From: Bacilli bacterium
GTDB taxonomy: Bacteria > Bacillota_I > Bacilli_A > RF39 > UBA660
Assembly (NCBI GenBank): GCA_017544165.1
Contig: JAFYER010000012.1
Location: 131,538 to 195,537, forward strand
Length of the DNA: 64,000 nucleotides
Reading direction: 5' to 3'
Shown here: piece by piece, positions 13,007 through 55,439 of the stretch
Layout: each line of letters opens with the position of its first letter
How positions within the stretch are numbered: position 1 is the stretch's first letter
Position numbers and translations under genes: made by a program
The notes under the pieces: generated by a model
What the model was told of the DNA's origin: nothing
The model's input: the letters and a program-made list of their open reading frames with translations, nothing else
Database searches by the model: none

Positions 13007-13534
13007 TTATACTTCCATCAATTCTGATTCTTTTTTCTTTATCTCTTCATCAATAAGTTTATTATATTTATCAACCGTTTCTTGAAGATCATCAAGATAA
13101 AGTTTTTCTTCGTCTTCAGGGTATTGTGCCTTAGTTATTTCTTCTTTAGCCTCAGTTCTAATGTTACGAAGTGCTATTTTGCCTTCCTCCCCAATATTTC
13201 TAGCTAGTTTAACGTATTCCTTACGGCGATCCTCCGTTAACTCAGGTATTGTTAAAATAACCATTTCCCCATTATTCGTAGGATTAATTCCAATATTAGC
13301 TTCTTGAATGGCTTTTTCAATATCCTTAACACATGACTTATCAAATGGTTTAATTAAAAGTTGTCTTGCTTCAGGTGCTGTAATATTAGCTAAACTTTGT
13401 ATAGGAGTAAGCGTACCATAATATTCAACCATAACACCATTAACAAGGGCAGGATTAGCTCTTCCTGCTCTAATAGTAGTAAGTCTTGATATAACATTTT
13501 CTAAAGCTTTTTGCATTTTATTTTCAGTATCCAT
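13007..13534 (-). CDS. frr: ribosome recycling factor
   Basis: 175 aa, TIRAGRANPALV...YYG..TP..Q..............KPFD...IEKAI; ends ELMEV like B. subtilis Frr. Confidence 0.9.
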   Translation of the reverse strand: MDTENKMQKALENVISRLTTIRAGRANPALVNGVMVEYYGTLTPIQSLANITAPEARQLLIKPFDKSCVKDIEKAIQEANIGINPTNNGEMVILTIPELTEDRRKEYVKLARNIGEEGKIALRNIRTEAKEEITKAQYPEDEEKLYLDDLQETVDKYNKLIDEEIKKKESELMEV

Positions 13535-13544
13535 ATAAACCTCC

Positions 13545-14276
13545 TTAAGATAAAATTATAACTTCATTATAATCTTTTTGATCATTTTTGACAACAATAG
13601 ATATTGAAAGTCTTCCCGACCTATCAACAAATATAGCATAGTCATCAATTGCCTCAATCGAAGCATCGGCATCTAACTCTTCATCAGTAAGCAAATTTTG
13701 ATCAGTAATATGATTAGTAATCTTATTTATAACATCTTCTTTTGTTAAATTAAACTTAGCTAATAGTTCATCTTCCGTATATCTATTGCCTGTTTCTTTA
13801 TCAAAAACATAGGTATCACTATCTAAATATGATATTAAATCCTCTCTATCAAAATGATAGTAATTTACGACTAATGAAATATAATTATCATATAAATAAT
13901 ACTCATATGTTTTGTATGTTGCTTTGACAACATTATCAAAATCAGCTTCCTCAAGTTCTTCATCAATAACAAGAGCATCTTTATATTCTTTGGCTTCATC
14001 ATTTAACTGTTTTTGAATGCTTTCATAATTTTTAAAATTAAATATTACATCCTTATATTCAATATCTAAATCATGAGCAATTGTTTCACTATTTTCAAAA
14101 TAAATATAATCTTTATTTTTGTCAATTCTAATATCTTTAGCCTTTTTACTAGTTTTATTTGCTACTTTCGTAGTATTTTCTTTAGGAAAACTTTTTTGCA
14201 TTAAGAAAAAGCCACCAACGATAATTATTAAAACAATAATAGCAAATACAATAAATTTCCAACCATTTTTCTCCAT
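13545..14276 (-). CDS. hypothetical membrane-anchored protein
   Basis: 243 aa with an N-terminal TM helix and an acidic extracellular domain. No family assigned. Confidence 0.5.
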   Translation of the reverse strand: MEKNGWKFIVFAIIVLIIIVGGFFLMQKSFPKENTTKVANKTSKKAKDIRIDKNKDYIYFENSETIAHDLDIEYKDVIFNFKNYESIQKQLNDEAKEYKDALVIDEELEEADFDNVVKATYKTYEYYLYDNYISLVVNYYHFDREDLISYLDSDTYVFDKETGNRYTEDELLAKFNLTKEDVINKITNHITDQNLLTDEELDADASIEAIDDYAIFVDRSGRLSISIVVKNDQKDYNEVIILS

Positions 14277-14277
14277 A

Positions 14278-14886
14278 TTACATCTCCATATATTCTTTTA
14301 AAACTTCATTCAATACTTCTTTTTGAAGTCCTATTTGATATTCACTCCAATATTTTTCAGCATTCATATTACCACTTATAAATGCATTTGAATCATCGAA
14401 ATGAATTACAATGCCATTTTTCTTAACATAAAGCGTTGGCCCATAAATATTAACTGTTCCATCATCTAAATGAGTAACATAATCGCTTAAATATTCAGCA
14501 ATACTTTGATATGTACCATTTTTCTTTTCACGATCATCTGTAATATCATAATAATATATTTCCTCGACATTATTATTCTTAGCTACCTCATTTAAAATAT
14601 TGGCATAATAACCAACATAGTCATTATTTTTTATGCCAAATAAAATAATAACATTATCTTGTTTAATATATGTTAAAGCCTCTTGATTATTAATATATGT
14701 ATAAACATTTTCTTTATCTATTATCGCTTTATGCTCATTAGCAAATTTCTCATTATCGTTAATATCTTTTTTTGAAAAATCAATTGTACTCACATAAATA
14801 AATCCCATTATAAATAAAATAAAAAGGATTAAAGATATAATCATTTGTTTTTGACTTTTAAAAATCCAAACTGGCTTATTATTCAT
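14278..14886 (-). CDS. membrane-anchored thioredoxin-fold-like protein lacking CxxC (paralogue-like of 11901..12434)
   Basis: 202 aa with an N-terminal TM helix. The segments VIILFGIKNNDY...YYYDIT...GPTLYVKKNGIVIHF have Trx-like topology without redox Cys. Confidence 0.45.
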   Translation of the reverse strand: MNNKPVWIFKSQKQMIISLILFILFIMGFIYVSTIDFSKKDINDNEKFANEHKAIIDKENVYTYINNQEALTYIKQDNVIILFGIKNNDYVGYYANILNEVAKNNNVEEIYYYDITDDREKKNGTYQSIAEYLSDYVTHLDDGTVNIYGPTLYVKKNGIVIHFDDSNAFISGNMNAEKYWSEYQIGLQKEVLNEVLKEYMEM

Positions 14887-14981: not shown

Positions 14982-15878
14982 TTAGTAATCTTCTAAAAAA
15001 TTAATAGCTTTAGTGGCCGCTATAGCTCCATCACTTGTGGCAGTTGTAAGTTGACGAAGTGTTTTTACTCGGCAGTCTCCTGCAACGAAAATCCCTTCTT
15101 CATTAGTTAAACAATCTTCACTTTGAATGTAGTTATCTTCACTAAGCGTCAACTTATCTTTTACAAGTTCAGTTTGAGCATCTAAACCAATTGATAAGAA
15201 TAATCCTTCGATTTCTAAAGATTTATCTTCTCCATCCATTTGATAGTTAATTCCTGTAAGATGTTCATTACCAATTAATTTAGTAACAACACTTTTGTAA
15301 AGAATTTCAATATTATCAGTCTCTTCGATTTTCTTAATTAAAGTACTATCGCTACGCATTTTATCTTTGCGAACAATCAAATATACTTTATTACATATTT
15401 TTGATAAATAAATGGCATTAACAGCGGCACTATTGCCACCACCTACGACAGCGACATCTTTATTCTTAAAAAAGGCTCCATCACAAGATGTACAAAATGA
15501 GATACCATTGCCGATAAGATTTGTTTCATTTTCAAGGCCTAGTAAACGATATTTAGCTCCGGTTGCTATTATTAAGACTTTACCTTCATAACTAGTATAA
15601 TCAGTTGTAACTTTTTTAACTTTACCAGTAGTAATTTTTAAAACCTCTTCGTATTCGATTTGAACGCCTAAATCTTCAGCTTGTTTTTCAAAAATACTAG
15701 CAAGCTCTACGCCTGATATTTCGGGAGCACCTGGATAATTTTCAACAAGTGGCGAAGATGCAATTTGGCCACCAATAGCATTTTTTTCTAAAACTAAGGT
15801 CTTTAAGCCGGCTCTTACACAGTAGATGCCTGCAGTAATACCTGCAGGCCCTCCACCGATAATTATTACATCATACAT
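14982..15878 (-). CDS. trxB: thioredoxin-disulfide reductase-like flavoprotein
   Basis: FAD site IIGGGPAG, redox-active CTSCDG (compare CATCDG in TrxB), NADPH site GGGNSA with a VRKDKMR (HRRD-like) motif, and C-terminal GIFVAGDC. Confidence 0.8.
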   Translation of the reverse strand: MYDVIIIGGGPAGITAGIYCVRAGLKTLVLEKNAIGGQIASSPLVENYPGAPEISGVELASIFEKQAEDLGVQIEYEEVLKITTGKVKKVTTDYTSYEGKVLIIATGAKYRLLGLENETNLIGNGISFCTSCDGAFFKNKDVAVVGGGNSAAVNAIYLSKICNKVYLIVRKDKMRSDSTLIKKIEETDNIEILYKSVVTKLIGNEHLTGINYQMDGEDKSLEIEGLFLSIGLDAQTELVKDKLTLSEDNYIQSEDCLTNEEGIFVAGDCRVKTLRQLTTATSDGAIAATKAINFLEDY

Positions 15879-15881
15879 ATT

Positions 15882-18278
15882 TTATTTTTTATCCTCGATG
15901 TATTTTTTGATATTAGAAAGGTTAGCAATAAGTGTAGCTTCACCTTTTTTTACCTCGACAAGTGTAGGAGCTTGACTCACACCTAAATATTTAGTAAGTT
16001 CAACTTCTTCTTCAGCGTCAATAAATTTATATTTAATTTTAGCCTTATCTAGTAACTTTTTTGCAGTTGAGCAATTTGGACAAGTTTTGGTTCCAAATAG
16101 ATAAATGCCGTTTTTAACTTTTTCTTTTTTATCTTGGCAACCACATTCACAAGTTTCATCGCAGTTGCAATTATCTTCGCAACCACATTCACAGTCTTTT
16201 GAGCATTTTGAATGTTCAATATCATATGTCTTACGCATTTTAAATTCTTTAGCCTTACCATCATTCCAGTTTTTAACAGGACGATAATATCCTGTAATAC
16301 GGCTGTATACTTCTGTTTCATCGCCACAAGTTGGGCAAGTATATACTTCGCCAGAAATATAACCATGTTTACGACATACAGAATATGTTGGACTCATTGT
16401 ATAATATGGAAGTTTATAATTTTCAGCAATCTTTCTAACTAAATTAGCAGCAGCTTTCCAGTCAGATAATCTTTCACCCATGAAGGCATGAAATACTGTT
16501 CCTGAAGTATAAAGTGTTTGAAGTTCATCTTGAATATCAAGAGCTGTAAAGATGTCTTCCGTATAACCTACTGGTAAATGAGAACTATTTGTATAATATG
16601 GAGTTTCATCATCAGAAGCCGTAATAATATCAGGGTACATTTCTTTATCTTTCTTGGCAAAACGATAAGTTGTTGATTCAGCTGGGGTCGCCTCAAGGTT
16701 ATATAAATCACCATATTCTTCTTGATAATCAGATAATTTATCTCTCATGAAGTTAAGTACTTCTTTAGTAAACTTAACTGCTTTTTCATTTGTTAAATCT
16801 TCGCCTACCCATTTAGCGTTTAAGCATGCTTCATTCATACCTACTAAACCGATTGTTGAAAAATGGTTAGCAAATGTTCCTAAATATCTTTTAGTATATG
16901 GATATAGTCCTTCATCTAATAGTTTAGTAATAACATTTCTCTTAATTTTTAAACTTCTTGCTGCTAAATTCATTAAGTTTTCTAATCTTTCATAGAATTC
17001 TTGTTCATTAGCGGAAAGATAAGCTATTCTCGGCATATTAATTGTAACTACACCAACAGAACCTGTTGATTCACCACTTCCGAAGAAACCTCCACTTTTC
17101 TTACGTAGTTCGCGAAGATCTAGACGAAGGCGACAGCACATACTTCTTACATCAGATGGCTCCATATCACTATTAATATAATTTGAGAAATATGGAGTTC
17201 CGTATTTAGCAGTCATTTCAAATAATAATTTATTATTTTCGGTTTCAGACCAATCAAAATTCTTAGTAATTGAATATGTTGGAATTGGGTATTGGAAACC
17301 ACGTCCATTAGCATCGCCTTCGATCATAAGTTCAATGAATGCCTTATTGACCATATCCATTTCTTTTTGACAGTCTTTATATTTAAAATCTACTTCCTTG
17401 CCCCCAATAATACAATTTAATTCTGCAAGGTCATTAGGTACTGTCCAATCAAGGGTAATATTAGTAAATGGTGCTTGAGTTCCCCATCTTGATGGAGTAT
17501 TAACGCCATATACAAATGATTGAATAGATTGCTTAACTTCTTTATATGATAAATTATCAATCTTAACAAATGGAGCTAAATATGTATCAAATGATGAAAA
17601 TGCTTGAGCACCAGCCCATTCATTTTGCATAATACCTAAGAAGTTTACCATTTGATTACATAATGTTGTTAAGTGTTTCGCAGGACTACTAGTAATCTTG
17701 CCGGGAACACCTCCAAGGCCTTCCTTAATAAGTTGTTTTAAACTCCAACCAGCACAATATCCTGTAAGCATTGATAAGTCATGAATATGAAAATCACAAT
17801 TACGATGAGCTTTAGCTATTTCTTCATCATATACTTCAGTAAGCCAGTAGTTAGCAGTAATTGCTCCGGAGTTACTTAAAATAAGACCACCAACAGAATA
17901 TGTTACAGTTGAGTTTTCTTTAACCCGCCAGTCGGTTACATTAATATAGCTGTTAACAACTTGTTTATAGTCAAGGATTGTTGATGACATAGCTCTTTGT
18001 TTTTCATGCAATTTACGATACAAAATATACGCCTTAGCAACATTTGTGTACCCAGCTTCCGATAAAACTACTTCTACACTATCTTGAATTGTTTCAACAT
18101 CAACAATATTATTTTTTACTTTATCAGCAAAATCTGCGGTAACTTTTAAAGCTAAGAAATCTAACACATTTTCATCGTAATTAACTTTTTCAGCCTCAAA
18201 AGCCTTCTCTATAGCCTCCTTTATCTTAATAATTTCAAATGGAACAATCTTTCCATCTCTCTTTCTAACTTTATACAT
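15882..18278 (-). CDS. nrdD: anaerobic ribonucleoside-triphosphate reductase (class III) with C-terminal Cys-rich segment and fused glutaredoxin/NrdH-like domain
   Basis: ATP-cone N-terminus; NrdD core with HDLSMLTGYC and MCCRLRLD; Zn-ribbon CPTC; and the glycyl-radical motif SRITGYY. This is followed by KCSKDCECGCEDNCNCDETCECGCQD and a CPNC redoxin domain, IYLFGTKTCPNCSTAKKLL... Confidence 0.9.
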   Translation of the reverse strand: MYKVRKRDGKIVPFEIIKIKEAIEKAFEAEKVNYDENVLDFLALKVTADFADKVKNNIVDVETIQDSVEVVLSEAGYTNVAKAYILYRKLHEKQRAMSSTILDYKQVVNSYINVTDWRVKENSTVTYSVGGLILSNSGAITANYWLTEVYDEEIAKAHRNCDFHIHDLSMLTGYCAGWSLKQLIKEGLGGVPGKITSSPAKHLTTLCNQMVNFLGIMQNEWAGAQAFSSFDTYLAPFVKIDNLSYKEVKQSIQSFVYGVNTPSRWGTQAPFTNITLDWTVPNDLAELNCIIGGKEVDFKYKDCQKEMDMVNKAFIELMIEGDANGRGFQYPIPTYSITKNFDWSETENNKLLFEMTAKYGTPYFSNYINSDMEPSDVRSMCCRLRLDLRELRKKSGGFFGSGESTGSVGVVTINMPRIAYLSANEQEFYERLENLMNLAARSLKIKRNVITKLLDEGLYPYTKRYLGTFANHFSTIGLVGMNEACLNAKWVGEDLTNEKAVKFTKEVLNFMRDKLSDYQEEYGDLYNLEATPAESTTYRFAKKDKEMYPDIITASDDETPYYTNSSHLPVGYTEDIFTALDIQDELQTLYTSGTVFHAFMGERLSDWKAAANLVRKIAENYKLPYYTMSPTYSVCRKHGYISGEVYTCPTCGDETEVYSRITGYYRPVKNWNDGKAKEFKMRKTYDIEHSKCSKDCECGCEDNCNCDETCECGCQDKKEKVKNGIYLFGTKTCPNCSTAKKLLDKAKIKYKFIDAEEEVELTKYLGVSQAPTLVEVKKGEATLIANLSNIKKYIEDKK

Positions 18279-18299: not shown

Positions 18300-18986
18300 C
18301 TATAAGTTCCGAACAATTACGTTTGGAAACTTTTCTCCCACTATTTTTTGTATATTGATTAGTTCTTCTTTACTAAATGATTCTAAAGTTTTATCTACAA
18401 CATACTCGCTTTGCTCAAAGTTTTGTAAAAAATACTTTTCACTATCCCCCAGATATTTGCATATTTCTAATATTTTATCTATATCATGAATATTTTTTAT
18501 GATTGTCGTCCTAAATTCATGATTAATAGATGCTTTTTTAAGCAATTTAATACTTTCCTTAATATTATCTATCTTAACTTTCGTCTTGATAACACTTTCA
18601 TAATCCTCAAAGGTTGTTTTAATATCCATTGCTATATAATCAATTAGGTTTTCTTCGATTAATTCCTTTAACATATTATAATTTGCACCATTAGTATCAA
18701 GTTTAACAAGATAACCTAATTCTTTAATTTTTGTAATAAAATCTTTTAGATCTTTTTGAATAGTTGGCTCCCCGCCAGTAATTACTACACCATCTAAAAC
18801 TGTTTTTCTTTTACTTAAGTAATTTAGTATTTCATCCTCAGTAATTTCTTCATTACCTTTCAAAGGAATAAGCTCTGAATTCTGACAAAAACTACATTTA
18901 AAATTACATCCTTGCGTAAATATAATACATGCTGTTTTTGATGGATAATCCAAAAGCGTTAATTTTTGAAGTCCTGCTATTTTCAT
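18300..18986 (-). CDS. nrdG: anaerobic ribonucleotide reductase activating protein (radical SAM)
   Basis: CNFKCSFCQN, a CxxxCxxC radical-SAM cluster motif, plus a GGEP SAM site. It lies between the two nrdD-type genes. Confidence 0.85.
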   Translation of the reverse strand: MKIAGLQKLTLLDYPSKTACIIFTQGCNFKCSFCQNSELIPLKGNEEITEDEILNYLSKRKTVLDGVVITGGEPTIQKDLKDFITKIKELGYLVKLDTNGANYNMLKELIEENLIDYIAMDIKTTFEDYESVIKTKVKIDNIKESIKLLKKASINHEFRTTIIKNIHDIDKILEICKYLGDSEKYFLQNFEQSEYVVDKTLESFSKEELINIQKIVGEKFPNVIVRNL

Positions 18987-20938
18987 TTTGTACCAACCTT
19001 CATCTTAGCAAAACCAATATCAACATCAATTAGTGATTTTATTAAATCTACTACTTGCTTATTATTAGCTTTCTTAGGAATATCTATAGTCAGTAAACAT
19101 CCACCTTTGAAATAAGATTGAACTTTACTTAATTTTTCCTTATTATCAATAAATTTACTGCTTTCAATTAGATCATAGACATTTTTATCAGTAATATTTT
19201 TGCTTACTCCATATATTGATTTATCAATACCGATAAGATACCTTCTTGATTGCAAATCACTTGGTTCAAAAACATTAAAGTTTATTTTTGCCTCTTCACT
19301 AAAATCAGTACATTTTTTATTAAAATAATCAAGTATTTTAATCATGAAGTCATATTGTTTTGTTTCATCTTTTTCTAATGCTATAACGCATTCTTTTAAG
19401 CCTATAAGGCCAATACTTAGATTGCCTGTTTTAATAATTTTCCGTATTTTTTGGCCGCTTTCAAGTCTCTCATCGCCAAGGATATTGCCATTAAATAGTG
19501 ATGCATAGTTTTCTTTACTTTTATTACCAATTGTTTCAAATGATAATAGTAATTCACTTTTAACTAAATCAAGTTGACTATCAAGCTCTTTATAAAACTC
19601 TTTTAAGTCTTTATTGATATATTTTAAGCCAATTCTTGCAAGGTTAATCGAGGTGCTTGCTACGACCATCCTGCCAGTTGCTTTATTTTCAGTATCATTA
19701 ATGTTTTCAAAAATACGCATGCCATTACTAAAGTATTCTGCTTCATAAGTATCATGGTTATATGAATTATCGACAAATGATAAAGAAATATTTTTTTGAT
19801 TAATGATTAGACTCGCAATTTTTGTTAAATAATGTTCATCACCATCAGACTTAACTTTAAACACAACATGAATATTATTTAAGTAGTTATTATCAGTTAA
19901 AAATGATATTAAGCTGCATCTTATAGTATTACATGCCTTTGATTCATCATTTCCTACGCTAATTGTATATGTGCAGCTTTCTTTAACATTTGTTTTTAAC
20001 ATTCCAAATACTCGACCAATAATATCGTTAATTAAGCCACTCATTTGCTTATCAACATCTTTTATAAGGGTTTTAAAAACATTTTCAATAACCGGATTAG
20101 TAATAAATTGTTTAAAGACATCGATTGAAATGTTTATATCCTCTATTTTATAAATAACTTCTTGAATCTTTTTATATGGAACAAATTCCAAAAGCCCACA
20201 CAAACGCAAATATTTTTTTAAATACTTATCAAGTTGTTTTTGATAGCAAGATATAATAAACTTTTTCAAAATAGAATCTAAAGAATTAATACCTATTTCG
20301 TTACTTACTTCACTTTGTGCATTAATAATATTACTGATAAATTCATCTAAGTATTCATCGTTTTCATCAATAGCAAGTTTAAGATTAACATGTGACAAAT
20401 ATCCTAAAGAAAAAGAGTTTAAATCGTGAATAAAAATATTGCCTTCTTCGAGAGCTCTTACATATTTACTATCTAAAACATATGCTTTAGCATATTCCGA
20501 AGAAATAATCTTACCAAATTTATTTAAAAGTTCTTTCGGAGTTAAACTTGAATCTTTACTATTGCTTTCTCCTTCAACTCTTTCAACTACCTTGACAAAT
20601 TTGTGTTGTTGTTTTTCATTAAAAACTTTTCTCGAAGCAGCTCTTTTTTGACGATAATCTTGAAAAGTTAAAAAAACTCTTTCAAACCCAGCATCCTTTA
20701 AAGTACTTTCTATGATGTCTTGAATATCTTCAACATTAATAGTTTTTCGGTCTTTATAATTAGTATTAATATACTTTAATACTTTTTCAAAAACACTATA
20801 AACTTGTTTCTCATCAGCTTCACCATATACGGCGTCAAACGCCTTTTTAACGGCTATTGCGATTTTGGAAGCGTTGAAATCAACTCTTTGTCCGCTGCGT
20901 TTAACTACAACTAGATTCTCTAATACTTCGTTCCACAT
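18983..20938 (-). CDS. NrdD-like paralogue with ATP-cone but lacking the C-terminal glycyl-radical/Zn-ribbon domain
   Basis: ATP-cone VVKRSGQRVDFNASKIAIAVKKAF; GNIFIHDLNSFSLGY aligns with HIHDLSMLTGYC of NrdD; RMVVASTSINLARIG aligns with VGVVTINMPRIA. The protein ends ...FAKMKVGTK with no RxxGY motif and no CxxC ribbon. Confidence 0.7.
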   Translation of the reverse strand: MWNEVLENLVVVKRSGQRVDFNASKIAIAVKKAFDAVYGEADEKQVYSVFEKVLKYINTNYKDRKTINVEDIQDIIESTLKDAGFERVFLTFQDYRQKRAASRKVFNEKQQHKFVKVVERVEGESNSKDSSLTPKELLNKFGKIISSEYAKAYVLDSKYVRALEEGNIFIHDLNSFSLGYLSHVNLKLAIDENDEYLDEFISNIINAQSEVSNEIGINSLDSILKKFIISCYQKQLDKYLKKYLRLCGLLEFVPYKKIQEVIYKIEDINISIDVFKQFITNPVIENVFKTLIKDVDKQMSGLINDIIGRVFGMLKTNVKESCTYTISVGNDESKACNTIRCSLISFLTDNNYLNNIHVVFKVKSDGDEHYLTKIASLIINQKNISLSFVDNSYNHDTYEAEYFSNGMRIFENINDTENKATGRMVVASTSINLARIGLKYINKDLKEFYKELDSQLDLVKSELLLSFETIGNKSKENYASLFNGNILGDERLESGQKIRKIIKTGNLSIGLIGLKECVIALEKDETKQYDFMIKILDYFNKKCTDFSEEAKINFNVFEPSDLQSRRYLIGIDKSIYGVSKNITDKNVYDLIESSKFIDNKEKLSKVQSYFKGGCLLTIDIPKKANNKQVVDLIKSLIDVDIGFAKMKVGTK

Positions 20939-21190: not shown

Positions 21191-22069
21191 TTAATTACCA
21201 TTAACTTGATTCATTACTTCTTCAGCAAAGTTATCGTTTCTTTTTTGCATACCTTCGCCTACTTCGTAGCGAACCATTGACTTAATTTCTCCACCATTGT
21301 TAGTTACGTATTTATTTACAGAAATATCTCCATCTTTGATAAATGGTTGTTCAGCAAGGCATATTTCCTTGTAGTATTTCTTAATACGTCCCTCGACCAT
21401 TTTTTCAGCAATATCAGCTGGTTTGCCTTCGTTGATAGCAAGTTCTTTTTGAACTTGTCTTTCAGCATCAAGTACATCAGCAGGTACATCACTTTCAAAA
21501 ACATATAATGGTTTCATAGCAGCTGATTGCATAGCTACATCTTTAGCAACTTCGTCATTAGCACCTTTAATAACTGTTAATACAGCAATTTTGCCACCCA
21601 TATGAATATAGTTACCAAAATGTTCGTCATCAGCTTTAGTTACTTTTTCAAATCTTCTTAGAGATAATTTTTCACCAATTTTAGCAGTTTTAGCAATAAT
21701 TAAATCTGCTATAGTCCCTTCCTCACAAGCAAGAGCATTTGCTTCCTCTAAAGAAGTTGCATCACTTTTTAAAATAGTATTACCGATTGTATCAATCATT
21801 TCTCTAAATTCTTCATTTTTAGAAACGAAATCAGTTTCACTATTTACCTCAATAATTACAGCATTATTGCCATCAACATAGATATTTGCTAAACCTTCAG
21901 CAGCAATTCTGCTTTCTTTTTTAGCAGATTTAGCAATGCCTTTTTCACGAAGCCAATTGATTGCTTCGTCCATATCGCCATTACATTCGCTTAAAGCTTT
22001 TTTACAATCCATCATGCCTGCGCCAGTTGCTTCTCTTAAATCTTTAACTAGACTTGCAGTTATTTCCAT
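21191..22069 (-). CDS. tsf: elongation factor Ts
   Basis: MEITASLVKDLREATGAGMMDCKKAL, the UBA-like N-terminus of EF-Ts, plus dimerisation core. Confidence 0.9.
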   Translation of the reverse strand: MEITASLVKDLREATGAGMMDCKKALSECNGDMDEAINWLREKGIAKSAKKESRIAAEGLANIYVDGNNAVIIEVNSETDFVSKNEEFREMIDTIGNTILKSDATSLEEANALACEEGTIADLIIAKTAKIGEKLSLRRFEKVTKADDEHFGNYIHMGGKIAVLTVIKGANDEVAKDVAMQSAAMKPLYVFESDVPADVLDAERQVQKELAINEGKPADIAEKMVEGRIKKYYKEICLAEQPFIKDGDISVNKYVTNNGGEIKSMVRYEVGEGMQKRNDNFAEEVMNQVNGN

Positions 22070-22077
22070 AAAAACAC

Positions 22078-22185
22078 CTACTTTAATGCCGCAATAAGGT
22101 CATCTTTTTTCATTGCTGAATAACCTTTAATGCCTTTTTCTTTAGCTAATGCTTTTAATTCTACTAATGTCTTTGAAGATAAGTC
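22078..22185. repeat. ~105-bp dispersed repeat (copy 1) encoding the shared Rho_N-like C-terminal module of S2
   Basis: Roughly 85-90% nucleotide identity with 52291..52398 by manual alignment. Confidence 0.7.
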
Positions 22186-23052
22186 TTCTTTTGCTTCTAC
22201 AGTTTCTTCAGTTTCATCGTCATCATCAACAACATCTTCAACGGTATAAACATCACTTGCTTTTTCAGCTTTTACTTCAGCAGTAACAGGTTCTTCTTTA
22301 ATTAGCTCTTCCATTGTTTCTTTGCCTTTAGTTTTACCTTTATCTTCTTCAGAAACATAGTCAACCATTTCAAGGCCTGTTGCTTCACATATAGCATTTG
22401 CTAATACGCCAAGTAAAACTTTGATACTTCTTACAGCATCATCATTACCAGGAATGACAAAATCAACATCATCTGGATCACCATTAGTGTCTACTACGCC
22501 AAATACTGGAATATGTAATTTTCTAGCTTCTTTTATAGCGTTGATTTCCTTTTTAGGATCAACAATAATTAATGCTTGTGGAAGTTTAACCATTTCTCTA
22601 ATACCACAAAGTAAACGATTAAGTTTTTCATATTCTTTCTTAATACCAATTACTTCTTTCTTAGGTAGAACTTCAAATGTACCATTAGCTTCCATAGCTT
22701 CTATTTCTTCTAATCTTTTAATTCTTCTTCTAATTGTTCTAAAATTAGTAAGAGTACCACCTAACCATCTTTCAGTTACATAATAAGAATTACTACGCAT
22801 AGCTTCTTCTACTGCAACTTCTCCTGATTGTTTTTTAGTTCCAACAAATAAGAACTTTCCTCCATTAGTAGCGATTGTCTTAATTTCTTCATAAGCAACC
22901 TCTAATAATGCTTGTGTTTTTTCAAGGTCAATGATATAAATATCATCTCTTGAATTAAAGATGTATTCCTTCATCTTAGGATTCCATCTCTTTGTTTGAT
23001 GTCCAAAATGAACACCAGCTTCTAATAAGTAGTTCATTGATACTACTGGCAT
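22078..23052 (-). CDS. rpsB: 30S ribosomal protein S2 with acidic linker and C-terminal Rho_N/SAP-like module
   Basis: S2 core [19 protein letters not shown]... followed by an acidic linker and ...[36 protein letters not shown]. This module recurs at the L20 C-terminus. Confidence 0.9.
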
Positions 23053-35155: not shown

Positions 35156-35500
35156 CTAATCCTCAAAAAATTTGTTAATAGGTCTTGGAGAAACAACTGA
35201 CTTAGTTATTTTTTCTACGCTGTCTTTACTGGTTAATTCTTGCACAAAATCAAGCGCTTTTTGAGCGGTAGAAATATGTTCTTTTATAGAATTAATATCA
35301 ACGTTTTTAATTAAATCATTGATCTTAAATGAATTATTATCTTTACTTCTATCTAAATATTTATCCCAAACTTCACTATTTTCTCCATATAGATCATACA
35401 TTTCATAAAACTTTTGCCATGTCATTGAACCATTTTCAACATAACTTGCAAGTTTTGGCTTACTTGATACAAATTTTCTAAAATCCTCTTTGCTTGCCAT
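35156..35500 (-). CDS. YlbD-like protein
   Basis: MASKEDFRKFVSSKPKLASYVENGSMTWQKFYEMYDLYGENSEVWDKY resembles the YlbD N-terminal signature. The start is set at 35500 (RBS AGGTGA), not the longer raw ORF that overlaps parC. Confidence 0.4.
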   Translation of the reverse strand: MASKEDFRKFVSSKPKLASYVENGSMTWQKFYEMYDLYGENSEVWDKYLDRSKDNNSFKINDLIKNVDINSIKEHISTAQKALDFVQELTSKDSVEKITKSVVSPRPINKFFED

Positions 35501-35546
35501 AATATCACCTAGTAATATATATGAAAAAAAGTAGAATAAATCTACT

Positions 35547-38042
35547 TTAAATCTTAAAATCATTAATAAAATCACTAAATGATAATTGTTCTTCACTATT
35601 TGTTTTTTCTATTTGTTCAACTTCTTTTGCTTCGCTATACTCTATAGCTTTTGGTTTCATATCATCTATTTTATTTTTGGTAATTAAACTTCCCACACTA
35701 TTAATATCTAATATAGATATGTCTGCATTTTTAATCTCTTTTATTTCGCTATCACATTTTAGTAAATTAATAGTCCTACTGTCAGATGGATAAGCGCAAG
35801 CAATAAAGCATTCTTTAGTTTTAGGTTTTTTTAGAATAAGTGCACCCTTTTTAGCTCTTGTTAGAACCTTTAGATCACTTAGTTTTACTCTTTTAGCAGT
35901 ATTATTGCTTGTTAAGACATTTAAATACTCGCTTGTTTCAGTTATTTGATTTGAACTAATTAAATAATCTTCTTTTAAATTAATTGCTTTAACGCCCGAT
36001 GCTTTTGTACCAATAGTTGGTATTTCATTACTTAAATATCTCAAATAATAGCCATTGTTTGTTACTAAAACTGTTTCACTGCCAAGCATTTCTGCTGAAA
36101 GAAGCTCATCACCTTCTTTTAACTTGATGGCACATATTGGTTTAGAGTATCTTTGAACTTCAAAATCATCAAGTAGTACACTTTTAATCATACCATTTTT
36201 AGTAGTTAAAACAATTTGTTTACCTTTTTCTAAAATTGCACTGCCAATTACTCTTTCATCTTGACTCATCATGACAATGTTGTTAACATGTTTACCTAAA
36301 TCTTTCCATTTACTTTCAAGAATTGTGTGAATTGGAATATATAGATAATTACCTAAGTTAGTAAATATTAATAACTTATTTTGGGTATTAGTGTTATAGA
36401 TATTTGTAATAAAGTCACCTGGTTTTAAAGCCATATCACCATCATTACTTGTATATGATTTAACCGATACTCTTTTTAAGTAACCTTCGTTAGTTACTAT
36501 TACTACTGTTTTTTCTTTAGGTATCATATCCATAGCATCAAGTTTAATTTCTGTTACTTCATCTCTTATTTCGGTTCTTCTTGGAGTAGCAAATTCTTTC
36601 TTTATAGCTAACAATTCATTTTTCATTTGTTTCTTTAACACTTCTTCATCACTTAGAATTTGTTTTAAAAATTCGATCATTCTTATCAAATCATTTTTCT
36701 CACCAAGAAGTTGCGTAATATCAGTATTTGATAAACGATATAGTTGCATTGTAACAATAGCGGTTGCTTGTTCCTCGGTAAAATCAAAAACCTTCATTAA
36801 ATTAGCTATTGAATCAGCCTTGTTTTTAGATGCTCTAATTGTTTTAATTACTTCATCCAGAACATCAATTGCCTTTAAAAGGCCTTCGACAATATGCATT
36901 CTAGAAAGTGCATGCTCTAAATCAAAATTAGTTCTTCTTAAAATGACATCCTTTTGATGAGCTATAAAAGCATCAAGAATAGCAAGAATACCTAATTGTT
37001 TAGGACGATGATTGACAATAGCAACCATATTAAAATTATAATTTATTTGTAAATCGGTATTTTTTAAAAGATAATTTAATATTAAATCAGCATTGGCATC
37101 TTTTTTAAGTTCAATAATAAGTTTTGCCATATGTTCACGGTCTGATTCATCACGGACATCAGTAATGCCATCAACCTTTTTATCAATTCTAATATCTTCG
37201 ATTTTCTTACGTAAACCCTCTTTTAAGACATCATAAGGTATTTCATGAATAATAATTTGTTTGCTACCTTTTTCACTAACAATCTCTGTTTTAGCTTTGA
37301 CTATTACCTTGCCTTTACCTGTTTCATAAGCTTGCATAAGGCCTAATTTGCCTTCGACAATGCCGCCAGTTGGAAAATCTGGTCCTTTGATAATATCCAT
37401 AATTGTTTCAAGACGGCAGTTTGGATTACTGATCCGGTGAACGGTTGCATCAATAACTTCCCCTAGATTATGTGGTGGAATATTTGTTGCATATCCAGCT
37501 GAAATACCTGTTGAACCATTAACTAAAAGATTTGGAAAGTTAGCCGGTAATACAGTTGGTTCTAATTCTTCATCACTATAGTTAAGCGCCATTTCTACTG
37601 CATTACGATTGATATCTTTAAGCATTACTTGGGCTATTTTTGTAAGCCTTGTTTCCGTATAACGATAGGCAGCTGGCCCATCACCATCGATTGAGCCATT
37701 ATTACCATGGATATCGATAAATACTTCCCGCATTTTCCACGGCTGTGACATATAAATCATAGCCCCATATATTGAGGAATCCCCATGAGGATGGTATTTA
37801 CCCATGACATCTCCAACCGCTTTAGCGCATTTACGATACGGTCTATCAAATGTATTGTGGTCCTCCCACATTGTATATAAAATTCTTCGTTGAACTGGTT
37901 TTAACCCATCACGAACATCAGGAAGAGCCCGATCTTGAATTATACTTTTAGCATAACGGCCAAAACGTTCACCAATGATATCTTCGAGAGTATAATCATA
38001 TATTTTTTCAATAATTGTTTTTTCTTCCTTTGCCTTTGCCAT
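35547..38042 (-). CDS. parC: DNA topoisomerase IV subunit A
   Basis: Type IIA topoisomerase A subunit with active-site Tyr region and DGLKPVQRRILY. No GyrA-box (QRRGGKG) is present in the C-terminal domain, and the locus is not at dnaA/dnaN-gyrB. Both points favour ParC over GyrA. Confidence 0.75.
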   Translation of the reverse strand: MAKAKEEKTIIEKIYDYTLEDIIGERFGRYAKSIIQDRALPDVRDGLKPVQRRILYTMWEDHNTFDRPYRKCAKAVGDVMGKYHPHGDSSIYGAMIYMSQPWKMREVFIDIHGNNGSIDGDGPAAYRYTETRLTKIAQVMLKDINRNAVEMALNYSDEELEPTVLPANFPNLLVNGSTGISAGYATNIPPHNLGEVIDATVHRISNPNCRLETIMDIIKGPDFPTGGIVEGKLGLMQAYETGKGKVIVKAKTEIVSEKGSKQIIIHEIPYDVLKEGLRKKIEDIRIDKKVDGITDVRDESDREHMAKLIIELKKDANADLILNYLLKNTDLQINYNFNMVAIVNHRPKQLGILAILDAFIAHQKDVILRRTNFDLEHALSRMHIVEGLLKAIDVLDEVIKTIRASKNKADSIANLMKVFDFTEEQATAIVTMQLYRLSNTDITQLLGEKNDLIRMIEFLKQILSDEEVLKKQMKNELLAIKKEFATPRRTEIRDEVTEIKLDAMDMIPKEKTVVIVTNEGYLKRVSVKSYTSNDGDMALKPGDFITNIYNTNTQNKLLIFTNLGNYLYIPIHTILESKWKDLGKHVNNIVMMSQDERVIGSAILEKGKQIVLTTKNGMIKSVLLDDFEVQRYSKPICAIKLKEGDELLSAEMLGSETVLVTNNGYYLRYLSNEIPTIGTKASGVKAINLKEDYLISSNQITETSEYLNVLTSNNTAKRVKLSDLKVLTRAKKGALILKKPKTKECFIACAYPSDSRTINLLKCDSEIKEIKNADISILDINSVGSLITKNKIDDMKPKAIEYSEAKEVEQIEKTNSEEQLSFSDFINDFKI

Positions 38043-47551: not shown

Positions 47552-48331
47552 TCATTTAATAAGTTTACGCAACTTACTCAAAGCATTTTTCTCAATCCTT
47601 GACACCTGAGCTTGGGAAATATTTAATTTCCCCGCTATTTCTGATTGAGTCTTACCTATCACAAATCTTTCCATCAAAATATTTCTTTCTCTTATTGATA
47701 TTTTATTAAATGCTCGATGAAGAGAAATCATCATATCTTTATCAGTATTTAATTCTTTTTTATCTGCAATTTGATCCTCGAGATATATTGTGTCCCCTCC
47801 ATCATTAAAGATTGGTTCTGAAACACTCATTGGTTCTTTAAGGGAATCTAAAGCATAACCTACTTCATATTCACTGATTTTTAAGAAGCTTGCTATTTCG
47901 CTAGGACTAGGTTCTCTTCCATGCATATTGATATAGTCCTCTTTAAATTTTAAGATTTGATAAGCTATATCTTTAGTACTTCTTGAAACCCTAATTGGTG
48001 TATTATTATCTCTTAAATATTTTTTGATTTCCCCGACAATAAGGGGAACTCCATAAGTAGAAAGCTTTAAATTATAGGAAATATCAAAATTATCAATTGC
48101 CTTTATAAGGCCTACAACCCCTACTTGGAATAAATCATCTAAGTTGACATTTCTTTTATTAAACCTTTTTAAGATAGATAAAACTAACTTTAAATTACCA
48201 TTAACCAATTTTTCTTTAGCATCTTTATCTCCCTGCTGCATCTTTTTAAATAATTCAATGTTTTGTTTATGCGTAAGCGATTTAATTTCGCTCGTATTAA
48301 GTCCTGTTATATCAACCTTATAATTGCTCAT
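47552..48331 (-). CDS. sigG: RNA polymerase sporulation sigma factor SigG
   Basis: Near-collinear with B. subtilis SigG: KLVNGNLKLVLSILKRFN...DDLFQVGVVGLIKAIDNFD...PIRVSRS..DIAY...SQAQVSRIEK. Confidence 0.85.
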   Translation of the reverse strand: MSNYKVDITGLNTSEIKSLTHKQNIELFKKMQQGDKDAKEKLVNGNLKLVLSILKRFNKRNVNLDDLFQVGVVGLIKAIDNFDISYNLKLSTYGVPLIVGEIKKYLRDNNTPIRVSRSTKDIAYQILKFKEDYINMHGREPSPSEIASFLKISEYEVGYALDSLKEPMSVSEPIFNDGGDTIYLEDQIADKKELNTDKDMMISLHRAFNKISIRERNILMERFVIGKTQSEIAGKLNISQAQVSRIEKNALSKLRKLIK

Positions 48332-48381
48332 AAAAAAATCCTTTCGCTCTTATAGTGAATCAAAAAGGATTTTTCTATTCA

Positions 48382-49062
48382 TTAACCTATTAAAGATTGA
48401 ATATTATTTATTACTTTCTTTTCAATTCTCGATATATATGACTGGCTTATTCCAAGCATCTTAGCTACTTCTTTTTGCGTATATTCCTTAGTATTATAAA
48501 GACCATATCTAAGTGTCATAATTTCTTTATCACGAGAATTAAGATTATTAATTTCCCTATTTAAAAACTCTTTATTTAAGGCATTTTCAAATGTTTTAGG
48601 TACAATATCATCATCCGTTCCTAAGACATCCTCCAGGTGTAGTTCATTTCCTTCGGCATCAAAATTTAGTGATTCCTCAAGGCTTACTTCCGTTTTTTGT
48701 CTTTTATTTTTCCGAATAAACATTAATATTTCATTAGAAATACACCTACTTGCGTATGTTGCAAGTTTAATATTTTTAGATATCTTATAGGTATTAATAC
48801 CCTTGATTAATCCAATTGAACCAATTGATACCAAATCCTCGATGTCGTATCCTGAGGATTCATACTTTTTGGCTAAGAACACAACTAATCTTAGATTATG
48901 TTCAATCAAAATATTTTTAGCCTGCTCATCACCAGATTTGGCTTTAATTAAATATGATAATTCCTCTTCTTTACTAAGAGGAGGTGGAAGTTTATCAGTA
49001 GCCCCGACAAAAAAGACTTCCCGATACTTTTTAAATAGCTTTTCTAATAGTTTTTTAAACAT
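48382..49062 (-). CDS. sigE: RNA polymerase sporulation sigma factor SigE (pro-sigma-E)
   Basis: A pro-sequence is followed by ALPPPLSKEEE...ILIEHNLRLVVFLAKKYE...KLATYASRCISNEILMFIR...GISQSYISRIEKK, which closely parallels B. subtilis SigE. Confidence 0.85.
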   Translation of the reverse strand: MFKKLLEKLFKKYREVFFVGATDKLPPPLSKEEELSYLIKAKSGDEQAKNILIEHNLRLVVFLAKKYESSGYDIEDLVSIGSIGLIKGINTYKISKNIKLATYASRCISNEILMFIRKNKRQKTEVSLEESLNFDAEGNELHLEDVLGTDDDIVPKTFENALNKEFLNREINNLNSRDKEIMTLRYGLYNTKEYTQKEVAKMLGISQSYISRIEKKVINNIQSLIG

Positions 49063-49846
49063 AATTATCCTCCATTAACTTTTTATTTAATAAGCAGTCT
49101 ATTCCATCCTGAAAATGATAATCGCTTACCCCAATTAAATAGTTATATATCTTTTTTTGATTAATAATTATAAAACTTGGTTTATAGCATTTCATTAAAC
49201 TGCTTCCTGATACCGTATGACAAGGAACATAAACCGGCGATCTAATTTTTTCGATTTCAGACATTTTCTTGTTACTTACAATAATAATTGCTTTTTTAGT
49301 TATGGGATCAATAAGATTATTACCATTATCTAAAAGTGATAAACATTTAATGCATTTTTGATTAAAATAGATTTCGATTACATAATATAAGCTATATGTA
49401 TTTTTTAATTTTTTAGAACTCTTATAGTAAATAAAAAGAATTATCGGTGAAAGAATCATTAAAACTATAATATTGGGATTAGTACCCTTAAAAAAGAATA
49501 GTAAACCTTGATGATCAAGTGATGTTTGCAAGTCTATAAAATATAGGAAGCCCGCTAAAACAAAGCTACACATATACAAATATAATAAATTATTTAAAGT
49601 ATACCTTATACTGACATAACCAAAGGAAATTAAACACATAATAATGCTCGTTATAATTTTAAATAAAAATAAAATAATTGAATTAATATTTAAAAAAAGC
49701 AAAAAAATAGAAATAGCTCCAAATAATGATGCAAAAATGTGATATTTAAACTTTCTATTTCTTTTTAAAGTAACACTTACAGTGAGCATCAATAATAAAT
49801 CATAGAAAAAATTCATAAAAAAAATTAGGTCCAAATATATAATCAT
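49055..49846 (-). CDS. spoIIGA: sigma-E processing aspartic peptidase SpoIIGA
   Basis: Polytopic N-terminal membrane domain plus a C-terminal domain with SLLDNGNNLIDPITK (compare the DSGN catalytic motif). It holds the canonical position upstream of sigE. Confidence 0.75.
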   Translation of the reverse strand: MIIYLDLIFFMNFFYDLLLMLTVSVTLKRNRKFKYHIFASLFGAISIFLLFLNINSIILFLFKIITSIIMCLISFGYVSIRYTLNNLLYLYMCSFVLAGFLYFIDLQTSLDHQGLLFFFKGTNPNIIVLMILSPIILFIYYKSSKKLKNTYSLYYVIEIYFNQKCIKCLSLLDNGNNLIDPITKKAIIIVSNKKMSEIEKIRSPVYVPCHTVSGSSLMKCYKPSFIIINQKKIYNYLIGVSDYHFQDGIDCLLNKKLMEDNYV

Positions 49847-52261: not shown

Positions 52262-52295
52262 TTGAAGCAAACAAAAATAGAGATTTCTCTCTATT
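52262..52295 (-). terminator. rho-independent terminator of the infC-rpmI-rplT operon
   Basis: 8-bp stem AATAGAGA/TCTCTATT with loop TTTC overlapping the rplT stop codon, followed on the minus strand by TTTGTTTG. Confidence 0.55.
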
Positions 52296-52398
52296 TAAGT
52301 GCTTTTAATAATTCATCTTTTTTCATTGATGAATAACCTTTAATTTCTTTTTCTTTAGCTAAAGCCTTTAATTCAGCAAGTGTTTTAGAAGATAAGTC
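52291..52398. repeat. ~105-bp dispersed repeat (copy 2) encoding the shared Rho_N-like C-terminal module of L20
   Basis: Roughly 85-90% nucleotide identity with 22078..22185. The encoded peptides differ at 6 of 35 positions. Confidence 0.7.
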
Positions 52399-52833
52399 TT
52401 CTTTTACTGCTTCTTTTTTGGTTTCTTTAACCTCTGCTTTCTTTTCAGCTTTTTCTTCTTTAGCAGGAGCTACTTTGCCATTTAAAGCATCTTTAGCAGT
52501 TTTAACTAATGCTGCAAAAGCTTTTTCATCATCAATAGCTAGTTCTGAAAGCATTTTACGATTGATTTCAATATTAGCTTTAGCAAGACCATTAATGAAT
52601 TTTGAATAACTGATATCATTCATACGACATGCAGCGTTAATTCGTGTAATCCATAATTTACGGAAATTTCTTTTGTTTTGTTTACGATCACGATAAGCGT
52701 ATGCACCACTATGGAAAAGTTGTTCTTGTGCAGTCTTATACAATCTATGTTTGCTACCAAAATATCCTTTAGCAGCTTTTAATACTTTTCTTCTTCTGTT
52801 TTTAGAAACAGTTCCACCTTTAACTCTTGTCAT
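52291..52833 (-). CDS. rplT: 50S ribosomal protein L20 with Lys/Glu-rich linker and C-terminal Rho_N/SAP-like module
   Basis: L20 core (ARVKGG..RRK..LK.AKGY.G...R.....Q...) followed by a KE-rich linker and ...[36 protein letters not shown]. Confidence 0.9.
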
Positions 52834-52847
52834 TTTTTAAACCACCC

Positions 52848-53042
52848 TTATATTACACTTGAAAGGTTTTTAGACATACCTTTCGCTAAAACGCCCTTAT
52901 TTCTTCTTTGTCTAACGGCTTTAGCTGTATCCTTTCCTGTTTTGTGATTACCATTACCCTTCTTAAAAGTAACAGTACCATTTTTCTTTTTGCTTAACAC
53001 TTTGCTACTAGCTTTATGTGTTTTTTGTTTACATTTTCCCAT
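52848..53042 (-). CDS. rpmI: 50S ribosomal protein L35
   Basis: 64-aa highly basic protein starting M.K.KQKTHKAS.K, located between infC and rplT. Confidence 0.7.
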   Translation of the reverse strand: MGKCKQKTHKASSKVLSKKKNGTVTFKKGNGNHKTGKDTAKAVRQRRNKGVLAKGMSKNLSSVI

Positions 53043-53048
53043 TTTTTA

Positions 53049-53582
53049 TTACTTCCTTTCTATTTTCTTTGGCGCCAACATCATCCAAACTTGACGGCCT
53101 TCAATTTGAGGTTTAGTTTCAATATCAGCAAGATCAGAAAGAGCATCAGCAAAGCGCAAAAGCACATCACTTCCAAGCTCAGGGTGAGCAATTTGTCTTC
53201 CTTTAAAACGAATAAATGCTTTAATCTTATGACCCTTCTTCAAATACTCAGCAGCATTCTTACGACGAGTTTCAAAATCACCGACATCAATTGTAACTGA
53301 TAAACGGTATTCTTTGATCTCTTTGCTATTTTCTCTTTGTTTCTTTTGAGCTTCTTTTAGTTTCTTTTGCTTTTCATAACGAAATTTATTATAATCCATT
53401 ACCTTAGCTACAGCCGGAACTGCATTTCCACTCATCAAAACTAAATCAAGTCCAGCATAATTTGCAAGTGTTAAAGCATCACTCAATTTTTTAATGCCTA
53501 ATTTCTCACCATTAGGTCCTATTACCATTAATTCCTCACATTTAATTTGATTATTAATTGGTAAATCCTCAATCTTTGCTAT
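53049..53582 (-). CDS. infC: translation initiation factor IF-3 (probable non-AUG ATA start)
   Basis: The ORF from the internal ATG (53528) begins MVIGPNGEKLGIK. The upstream in-frame sequence (AKIEDLPINNQIKCEEL) aligns with the IF-3 N-terminus. The ATA at 53582 has GGAGG 7 nt upstream, consistent with the usual AUU/AUA autoregulatory start of infC. Confidence 0.75.
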   Translation of the reverse strand: MAKIEDLPINNQIKCEELMVIGPNGEKLGIKKLSDALTLANYAGLDLVLMSGNAVPAVAKVMDYNKFRYEKQKKLKEAQKKQRENSKEIKEYRLSVTIDVGDFETRRKNAAEYLKKGHKIKAFIRFKGRQIAHPELGSDVLLRFADALSDLADIETKPQIEGRQVWMMLAPKKIERK

Positions 53583-53743: not shown

Positions 53744-53769
53744 TTGTCAATAACTATTTATCTTCTTTT
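53744..53769. repeat. 26-bp perfect direct repeat TTGTCAATAACTATTTATCTTCTTTT (copy A; duplicate of the recA 3' end)
   Basis: Identical to 54249..54274, 505 bp away. Lies 13 nt downstream of the KilA-N gene. Confidence 0.85.
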
Positions 53770-53781
53770 ATTTTTTAATCT

Positions 53782-54248: not shown

Positions 54249-54274
54249 TTGTCAATAACTATTTATCTTCTTTT
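54249..54274. repeat. 26-bp perfect direct repeat TTGTCAATAACTATTTATCTTCTTTT (copy B; native recA 3' end)
   Basis: Covers the recA stop codon (54259..54261) and the last four codons (K E D K). Confidence 0.85.
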
Positions 54275-55320: not shown

Positions 55321-55439
55321 TATGTTCTCCTTTAATATAACTCTGACATTTTTATTGTATCTTATCATTTTATAAAAGTCAACAAAAATATGCAAATATT
55401 TGTTCGCTATTAATATTGCAAAAAAAACCGAGATTTTTC

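Follow-up and report, generated by a model that had tools for sequence, protein, structure and literature searches.

The 64,000-nucleotide (nt) stretch of DNA analysed here, referred to throughout as the window, belongs to an uncultured, AT-rich gut Bacilli bacterium (assembly GCA_017544165.1, contig JAFYER010000012.1, positions 131,538–195,537, forward strand) and encodes the ribosomal proteins uS2 (rpsB) and bL20 (rplT), both of which end in the same 36-residue module. There is very little doubt that these tails are real, conserved copies of a Rho_N-type helix-extended-helix (HeH) module. In each protein, a charged low-complexity stretch, acidic in uS2 and mixed-charge and Lys/Glu-rich in bL20, is followed by a terminal Rho-N motif of ~40 amino acids (aa). 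By analogy with a characterised plant protein, the tail may act as a low-specificity nucleic-acid tether, with RNA as the favoured ligand, a reading to which a probability of about 0.45 is given.

The tails of uS2 and bL20 are identical at 30 of 36 positions, or at 29 of 35 when the leading Glu is left out. The latter count had been given in a preliminary description of this DNA for the span 22078–22185, which consists of the stop codon and the last 35 codons of rpsB, and it was reproduced, as was the observation that S2 and L20 terminate in the same module. The DNA identity of ~88% reported there was too high. Over the same span, 86 of 108 nt are identical (80%) and 22 differ, and the best ungapped register, which defines the two repeat copies in Table 1, reaches 85% over 106 nt. 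This 106-nt pair is the longest direct repeat of the window, its copies lying on the same strand at a spacing of 30,213 nt. The similarity runs from AAAGAAGACTTATC (K-E-D-L-S codons) to the stop codon, and the flanks are unrelated. When each tail was compared with the window by tblastn, the two tails matched each other with E = 7e-16, and no third copy was found (next-best match E > 0.09).

The sole other Pfam domains of the two host proteins are Ribosomal_S2 and Ribosomal_L20. In uS2, the Ribosomal_S2 match (309 bits) covers residues 9–223 and profile positions 1–215 of 216, and the Rho_N match covers residues 290–323. In bL20, Ribosomal_L20 (155.8 bits) covers residues 3–109 and all 107 profile positions, and Rho_N covers residues 146–179. 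The uS2 of the window is 100% identical to NCBI MBR4231460.1 and the exact protein recurs on 6 contigs; bL20 is identical to NCBI MBR4231494.1 and recurs on 10 contigs. Both are entered as ‘MAG: Bacilli bacterium’, MAG denoting a metagenome-assembled genome.

The assignment to the Rho_N family (PF07498), proposed in the preliminary description, holds in a hidden Markov model (HMM) check. The curated Pfam cut-offs are 24.9 bits for Rho_N and 23.9 bits for SAP (PF02037). Full-length uS2 and bL20 score 42.5 and 36.9 bits, respectively, against Rho_N, and the isolated tails 47.9 and 41.1 bits, the match spanning profile positions 1–34 of 43. SAP was the runner-up family and remained below its cut-off, with 12.0 bits in full-length uS2 and 20.3 and 14.1 bits for the isolated uS2 and bL20 tails, respectively. 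A phmmer search of the PDB sequences with the tail matched only Rho N-termini (8hsj, E = 1.5e-5; 7oqh, E = 1e-3). Judged from these sequence comparisons, the relationship to SAP holds only at the level of fold or clan.

The predicted structure agrees with the family assignment and with the HeH fold proposed earlier. An AlphaFold2 model of the tail, built from an alignment of 56 tail sequences, has a mean predicted local distance difference test score (pLDDT) of 80.5 and consists of a helix at positions 17–27, an extended loop of nine residues and a second helix at positions 37–44. The top Foldseek matches to this model are the N-terminal domain of Escherichia coli Rho (1a8v/2a8v), with a root-mean-square deviation (rmsd) of 0.8–0.9 Å over 33 columns and a probability of up to 0.98; the E-values are weak, the query having only 45 residues. 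Next come the SAP domain of FAN1 and the SAP domain 1h1j, and the SAP-like C-terminal domain of CDNF is also among the matches.

In Rho, the module is followed by an oligonucleotide/oligosaccharide-binding (OB) fold that serves as the RNA-binding domain (PF07497) and by a RecA-type ATPase. Neither follows the module in uS2 or bL20, and hence the two proteins are not paralogues of Rho.

The acidic linker ahead of the module in S2, described previously, was confirmed from the sequence. In the full-length AlphaFold model of uS2, residues 230–288 have pLDDT below 50, and the tail itself has values of about 80–90; the module is therefore predicted to be a folded knob on a disordered leash. Among species, linker length ranges from ~19 to 74 aa in uS2 and from ~5 to 192 aa in bL20. 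In an Erysipelotrichales MAG (locus L048, WRBM01000008.1, open reading frame (ORF) end ~4102), bL20 has 356 aa; its linker of ~190 aa is enriched in Ala, Lys, Pro, Glu and Val, and an additional, degenerate half-module stands directly before the tail. In close relatives the uS2 linker keeps an island of the pattern MEELIK...K.EKA.DVYTV.DIV, and distant species have plain Lys/Glu-rich linkers. The conserved island may represent a second short functional motif.

The module is retained well beyond the window. PF00318 and PF07498 occur together in all of the 120 best uS2 homologues (78–100% identity), which stem from assemblies of ENA, NCBI, JGI and Logan under the names ‘Bacilli bacterium’, ‘Firmicutes bacterium’ and ‘Mycoplasma sp.’; one homologue cluster is present on 404 contigs. 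A scan of GTDB with the tail alignment, at one genome per species, yielded at least 185 confirmed loci. The best 80 were kept; they were thus chosen for similarity to the tails of the window, and the binning of MAGs can err. These 80 loci contain 82 tails. In uncultured gut Bacilli, uS2 carries 35 of them and bL20 28; the remaining 19 are bL21 tails of Flavobacteriaceae. The Bacilli carriers include ‘Clostridium sp. CAG:609/628’, ‘Acholeplasma sp. CAG:878’ and Candidatus Onthocola, and the bL21 carriers include cultured Tenacibaculum, Lutibacter and Pseudotenacibaculum. A single tailed bL32 was found in a yceD-rpmF context, on a contig of uncertain origin. The S2/L20 tails of Bacilli and the L21 tails of Flavobacteriaceae share a mean identity of ~61–66%, with best values of up to 86%. 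Dozens of related genomes of gut Bacilli keep the module on S2, on L20 or on both.

Several loci of the scan need separate comment. At L043 and L076, rplT adjoins rpsB and both genes are tailed, with the tails ~1 kb apart in the same orientation; this adjacency could mark the place where the module was first duplicated. Loci L012, L024, L033 and L036 come from MAGs labelled Muribaculaceae or Candidatus Paceibacteria and carry Bacilli-type L20/S2 or Flavobacteria-type L21 tails; these contigs are probably mis-binned. The 41–44-aa ‘Rho termination factor N-terminal domain-containing proteins’ of the databases at L081 (4001–4126) and L083 (4001–4135) are artefacts, being mis-called or frameshifted S2 tails. 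Two candidates for a stand-alone Rho_N protein were accordingly rejected: P0155 is flanked by an S2 call lacking the tail and by tsf, on a contig whose peptidase M50 and EF-Ts genes are also split, and P0153 is an internal-start call within an intact S2 of 332 aa.

Purifying selection acts on the module. The ratio of nonsynonymous to synonymous substitution rates (dN/dS, Nei-Gojobori) is 0.29 for uS2 tails, 0.25 for bL20 tails and 0.14 for bL21 tails. Among 84 tails, L11, K12, A15, K16, G22 and K27 are invariant, and K28, Y23 (Y or F), E10 and L35 are nearly so; the mean net charge over tail positions 6–36 is +2.7. Together with the conservation across many species and assemblies, these values uphold the earlier view that the tail is an acquired module and not a product of random drift.

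The tails show no host-specific signature, mean amino acid identity among uS2 tails (0.665) being not above that between uS2 and bL20 tails (0.674). Only six genomes with both tails, the window included, were available for comparison within genomes, and their loci had been selected for likeness to the window tails. In these six pairs the mean uS2–bL20 tail identity is 0.80 at the nucleotide and 0.79 at the amino acid level, as compared with a nucleotide identity of 0.69 for mismatched genomes, and the observed within-genome identity was reached by none of 265 derangements. In 5 of the 6 genomes, the uS2 tail resembles the bL20 tail of the same genome more closely than it does the uS2 tails of the remaining five genomes. 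The two copies thus do not evolve independently and share lineage-specific residues within genomes.

The clearest case is CANQAK (L028, L067), in which the 3′ ends of the uS2 and bL20 genes share ~165 nt at ~95% identity. Of this tract, 57 nt belong to the linker; it stops precisely at the stop codon, and its longest uninterrupted stretch of identity is 55 nt. This pattern points to recent gene conversion or duplication between the two genes. When synonymous sites were compared with those of 1002 cross-genome pairs, CANQAK alone gave a strong signal (top 0.6%), and that of CANQHB (top 9%) is suggestive. The protein likeness of the window tails lies in the top 4% of cross-genome pairs. Recent gene conversion in the window itself is not supported: the proportion of synonymous differences (pS) is 0.50, as compared with 0.52 on average across genomes, and 32% of cross-genome pairs reach or exceed its codon identity of 0.72 at identical residues. 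Any exchange in the window is therefore either old or has been replaced by selection for likeness. Since the copies co-vary within genomes and, in at least one genome, have been copied between genes, the module is generic and interchangeable and not tuned to one ribosomal site.

The module also occurs outside ribosomal proteins. A HMMER scan of 1.84 billion cluster representatives gave 2976 clusters at E ≤ 1e-3 with many architectures. The highest scores belong to HeH proteins with several repeats, which match SAP and HeH as well. Among 86 related module proteins, 50 co-match SAP and 22 co-match HeH/LEM. In phages, the module forms the C-terminal end of small phrog_2724 proteins, including those of Streptococcus pneumoniae prophages, and of EndoVII-like (phrog_3281) and Arc-like repressor (phrog_390/1539) families (entries P0199, P0163, P0182 and P0238; loci L084–L163). 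In IMG/VR, 111 module loci were confirmed at 50–70% identity. Phages were considered as a direct recent donor and rejected on account of this low identity.

The C-terminus of uS2 presumably emerges on the solvent side of the 30S subunit near the mRNA exit and the S1-docking area, and the C-terminal domain of bL20 is taken to lie on the back of the 50S subunit, touching bL21. Each tail would be a small, basic knob that binds nucleic acid and is exposed, on its flexible leash, at the solvent face of its subunit, that of uS2 beside the mRNA exit and S1-docking region and that of bL20 on the back of the 50S subunit adjoining bL21. Because bL20 contacts bL21, the bL20 tails of Bacilli and the bL21 tails of Flavobacteriaceae would occupy the same neighbourhood. 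The target would be nucleic acid bound with low sequence specificity, single-stranded RNA (mRNA or nascent/unfolded rRNA) being the likeliest, and the binding face would be formed by K12, K16, K27 and K28 together with G22 and Y23. Binding may raise the local RNA concentration or tether ribosomes or subunits to transcripts.

RNA is favoured because the 40-aa Rho-N motif of the plant protein RHON1 binds single-stranded RNA. In Arabidopsis RHON1, the last 40 aa, comprising a C-terminal Rho-N motif behind an acidic stretch, suffice for this binding, which extends to 16S and 23S fragments but not to double-stranded RNA (PMC3458557).

Several points weigh against the RNA-tether reading. Binding by RHON1 is reported to be weak, in the range of 80–800 nM, and variable (PMC3458557). 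At the synonymous sites, the tails of the window are as diverged as tails from different genomes, and their similarity could reflect selection rather than DNA exchange. No solved ribosome with the tail was found by a PDB sequence search in which the bL21 of 7jil was checked. In Rho, the primary RNA-binding site is the OB fold after the helix module, and hence the name Rho_N is itself no evidence of RNA binding. Double-stranded DNA is the ligand of most characterised clan members (SAP, LEM-like, HeH), and for some (LEM, the SAP-like domain of CDNF) it is a protein. The earlier designation of the tail as a nucleic-acid-binding motif thus stands as far as relatives such as RHON1 and SAP do bind nucleic acid, and does not draw support from Rho, in which that role falls to the OB fold.

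Binding to DNA instead of RNA is an unlikely alternative, in which the tail would be a SAP-like double-stranded-DNA binder tethering ribosomes or free subunits to the nucleoid, for example for co-transcriptional translation or partitioning. The isolated uS2 tail scores close below the SAP cut-off, the related module proteins frequently match SAP (50 of 86) or HeH/LEM (22 of 86), the fold matches include the DNA-bound SAP domain of FAN1 and the S/MAR-binding (scaffold/matrix attachment region) SAP domain 1h1j, and the phage module ends DNA-acting families (EndoVII-like proteins and Arc-like repressors). However, Rho_N and not SAP is closest by both sequence and fold, and the sole isolated Rho-N motif that has been examined experimentally, that of RHON1, bound single-stranded RNA (PMC3458557). 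A module borne on the ribosome is moreover surrounded by a very high local concentration of RNA, and no feature of the window links it to DNA.

Docking to a protein, offered earlier as a candidate role alongside RNA or mRNA tethering, is judged equally unlikely. The tails of both subunits would here recruit the same partner, such as RNA polymerase, a factor or a chaperone, or bridge to one another in hibernating dimers or ribosome arrays. With one partner or a mutual fit, lineage-specific residues common to both tails within genomes would be expected, as observed, and the identity between Bacilli and Flavobacteriaceae tails (~61–66% on average, up to 86%) implies that the target is highly conserved. 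Proteins are bound by some domains of the HeH fold, the C-terminal domain of CDNF with BiP being among the fold matches, and uS2 is situated at the 30S–30S interface of Firmicute 100S dimers. Nevertheless, the invariant surface is rich in lysine (K12, K16, K27, K28), as is more usual in binders of polyanions, the window contains no linked gene for a candidate partner, and gene conversion, directly visible in CANQAK, also accounts for the similarity within genomes.

A stronger claim, that the S2 and L20 tails form a deliberately matched pair, is rather more doubtful. Gene conversion together with selection would keep them alike because they share one target, and they would constitute a hitherto unrecognised ribosome-tethering system that arose on different ribosomal proteins in two phyla, namely on uS2 and bL20 in gut Bacilli and on bL21, the structural neighbour of bL20, in Flavobacteriaceae, as well as on bL32 in one contig. 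Candidate targets are the nascent transcript and the nucleoid; alternatively, one tail would bind another, organising ribosomes in arrays or hibernating pairs. With a transcript or nucleoid as the target, ribosomes or free subunits would be physically coupled to transcription sites.

It is improbable that the tail lacks a function, having been joined by chance, as a small and well-folding module, to solvent-exposed C-termini that tolerate it and then spread and maintained by gene conversion. The module is indeed promiscuous, as seen from the 2976 clusters at E ≤ 1e-3 with many architectures, phage proteins included, a gene-conversion tract is visible and the linkers are highly variable. However, dN/dS values of 0.14–0.29 and six invariant plus two nearly invariant positions in 84 tails from two phyla are at odds with absence of function, and the module is kept on essential, highly expressed proteins in dozens of species while the linkers vary freely.

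An artefact of assembly, in the form of a collapsed repeat or of chimeric 3′ ends, was raised in the preliminary description, and one of assembly or gene calling is conceivable for a metagenome-type assembly, given that some database entries, the 41–44-aa ‘stand-alone’ Rho_N proteins, are indeed artefacts. It can be dismissed, as the two copies show 22 differences in 108 nt and each has its own flanks, the same S2 and L20 proteins occur on 6 and 10 contigs, respectively, the tail is present in 120 of 120 best S2 homologues from four data sources and many independent assemblies, and tailed L21 is encoded by cultured, isolate-sequenced Flavobacteriaceae.

Among known systems, the N-terminal module of Rho is the nearest in family, with scores above the Rho_N cut-off, phmmer matches to Rho entries of the PDB and a fold superimposing at 0.8–0.9 Å. 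It differs in being a three-helix bundle, whereas the tails have two helices, and in its N-terminal location ahead of the OB fold and ATPase, neither of which is present in the tailed proteins; the tails are C-terminal, and in the ribosomal proteins a flexible low-complexity linker precedes them. Arabidopsis chloroplast RHON1 has the same order of a strongly acidic stretch and a terminal Rho-N motif of ~40 aa, and works in a gene-expression system of bacterial type (PMC3458557). Unlike uS2 and bL20, it is a free partner of RNase E and not a ribosomal protein; no orthology is implied. The SAP, LEM and HeH (PF12949) domains belong to the same fold class, as reflected in the co-matches of related module proteins and the sub-threshold SAP scores, but they are mainly eukaryotic and bind double-stranded DNA or proteins, and the tails fall below the SAP cut-off.

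Extensions of bacterial and organellar ribosomal proteins are likewise terminal, on the solvent side, and often flexible and unresolved. Chloroplast bL21c, for instance, has 97 extra residues, and most such extensions lie on the solvent side (PMC5071890). The bL21 of Flavobacterium johnsoniae (7jil_R) has an Ala/Lys-rich C-terminal extension without the module. The tails described here differ from such extensions in ending in a defined, independently folding domain that is common to small- and large-subunit proteins and exchanged between them. The phage module proteins carry the same type of module at the C-terminus, but their identity of 50–70% is below that of the best inter-phylum matches between ribosomal tails, and the proteins bearing it are DNA-acting or of unassigned function.

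The coordinates of the tailed genes, their parts and neighbouring features are collected in Table 1. The order rpsB–tsf is preserved, the downstream ORF at 21191–22069 reading as elongation factor EF-Ts from its translation alone; EF_TS is recorded at the matching position in L081 and L083. The order infC–rpmI–rplT is also present, with initiation factor IF3 at 53049–53528 upstream of rplT and a Lys-rich ORF of 64 aa at 52848–53042 that was taken as L35 and has no Pfam match. The infC ORF as listed begins at an internal ATG, the IF3_N match opening at profile position 12; translation probably starts at a non-ATG codon further upstream, the usual situation in infC. No Rfam leaders or other RNAs were found at the rpsB and rplT loci, and only two tRNAs were found in the window.

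Table 1. Positions in the window of the tailed ribosomal protein genes, of their domains and repeat copies, and of the ORFs between tsf and frr.
Feature	Position	Strand	Basis and remarks
rpsB, ribosomal protein uS2 with C-terminal extension	22078..23052	-	324 aa + stop; ORF, Pfam
uS2 core domain, residues 9–223	22384..23028	-	Pfam PF00318, E = 1.5e-92
uS2 linker, residues 224–288, acidic, low-complexity, predicted disordered	22189..22383	-	AlphaFold
uS2 Rho_N-type helix-extended-helix tail, residues 289–324	22081..22188	-	Pfam, AlphaFold, Foldseek, phmmer
rplT, ribosomal protein bL20 with C-terminal extension	52291..52833	-	180 aa + stop; ORF, Pfam
bL20 linker, residues 120–144, Lys/Glu/Ala-rich, mixed charge	52402..52476	-	Sequence
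bL20 Rho_N-type helix-extended-helix tail, residues 145–180	52294..52401	-	Pfam; 30/36 identical to uS2 tail
DNA repeat copy 1: uS2 tail and final linker codons	22100..22205	.	Repeat search of window
DNA repeat copy 2: bL20 tail and final linker codons	52313..52418	.	Repeat search, alignment; 85% identical to copy 1
Diverged NrdD-like ORF	18983–20938		Pfam, 132 bits
NrdG-like radical-SAM activase	18300–18986		Pfam
Full NrdD with C-terminal glutaredoxin domain	15882–18278		Pfam, 650 bits
TrxB-like reductase	14982–15878		Pfam
ORF without Pfam match	14278–14886		
ORF without Pfam match	13545–14276		

Normally, pyrH is located between tsf and frr. In the window, the interval between tsf and frr (13007–13534) is occupied by other ORFs in the usual place of pyrH, namely two NrdD-type ORFs, an NrdG-like activase, a TrxB-like reductase and two ORFs without Pfam match (Table 1). 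Similar ORFs without a recorded Pfam match lie between tsf and frr at L081 and L083.

The window further includes murB, murG, ftsQ/A/Z, a penicillin-binding protein gene, spoIIGA-sigE-sigG, recA and nusA-infB-rbfA-truB, at a G+C content of 29.6%. Genes for SpoIIGA and for sigE-like and sigG-like factors follow ftsA-ftsZ (47552–49846), and a YlbD-type coat protein is encoded at 35156–35596. The lineage is sometimes labelled ‘Mycoplasma’ or ‘Tenericutes’ in databases. The gene content points to a walled, AT-rich member of the Bacilli that is probably spore-forming, and not to a mollicute. Another direct repeat, of 43 nt (53744–53786 and 54249–54291), has copies that are 84% identical and 505 nt apart; it encloses an ORF with a KilA-N domain (53782–54204, minus strand) between recA (54259–55395) and infC, and this ORF looks like a small inserted cassette with duplicated ends.

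No published description of Rho_N or SAP tails on bacterial ribosomal proteins was found, the literature giving only papers on RHON1 and Rho. The domain family and the extensions of ribosomal proteins are both already known, and precomputed Pfam annotations already display S2+Rho_N and L20+Rho_N as domain architectures. What is new is therefore not the fold itself but the recognition and interpretation of the tail architecture: one defined domain on proteins of both subunits, its recurrence on bL21 in a second phylum and once on bL32, and the evidence for homogenisation of the copies within genomes.

Bacterial ribosomal proteins are usually treated as near-invariant, and here an independently folding domain of nucleic-acid-binding type is leashed to both subunits and, in at least one related genome, has passed by copying between two essential genes that are unlinked. 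What the tail does can be approached by experiment, since the module occurs on bL21 in Flavobacteriaceae that are in culture (Tenacibaculum, Lutibacter). Should the tail bind RNA or DNA, it would serve as an inherent tether that may affect mRNA capture, transcription-translation coupling, assembly or ribosome localisation, and it would provide a bacterial counterpart to the extensions of organellar and eukaryotic ribosomal proteins.

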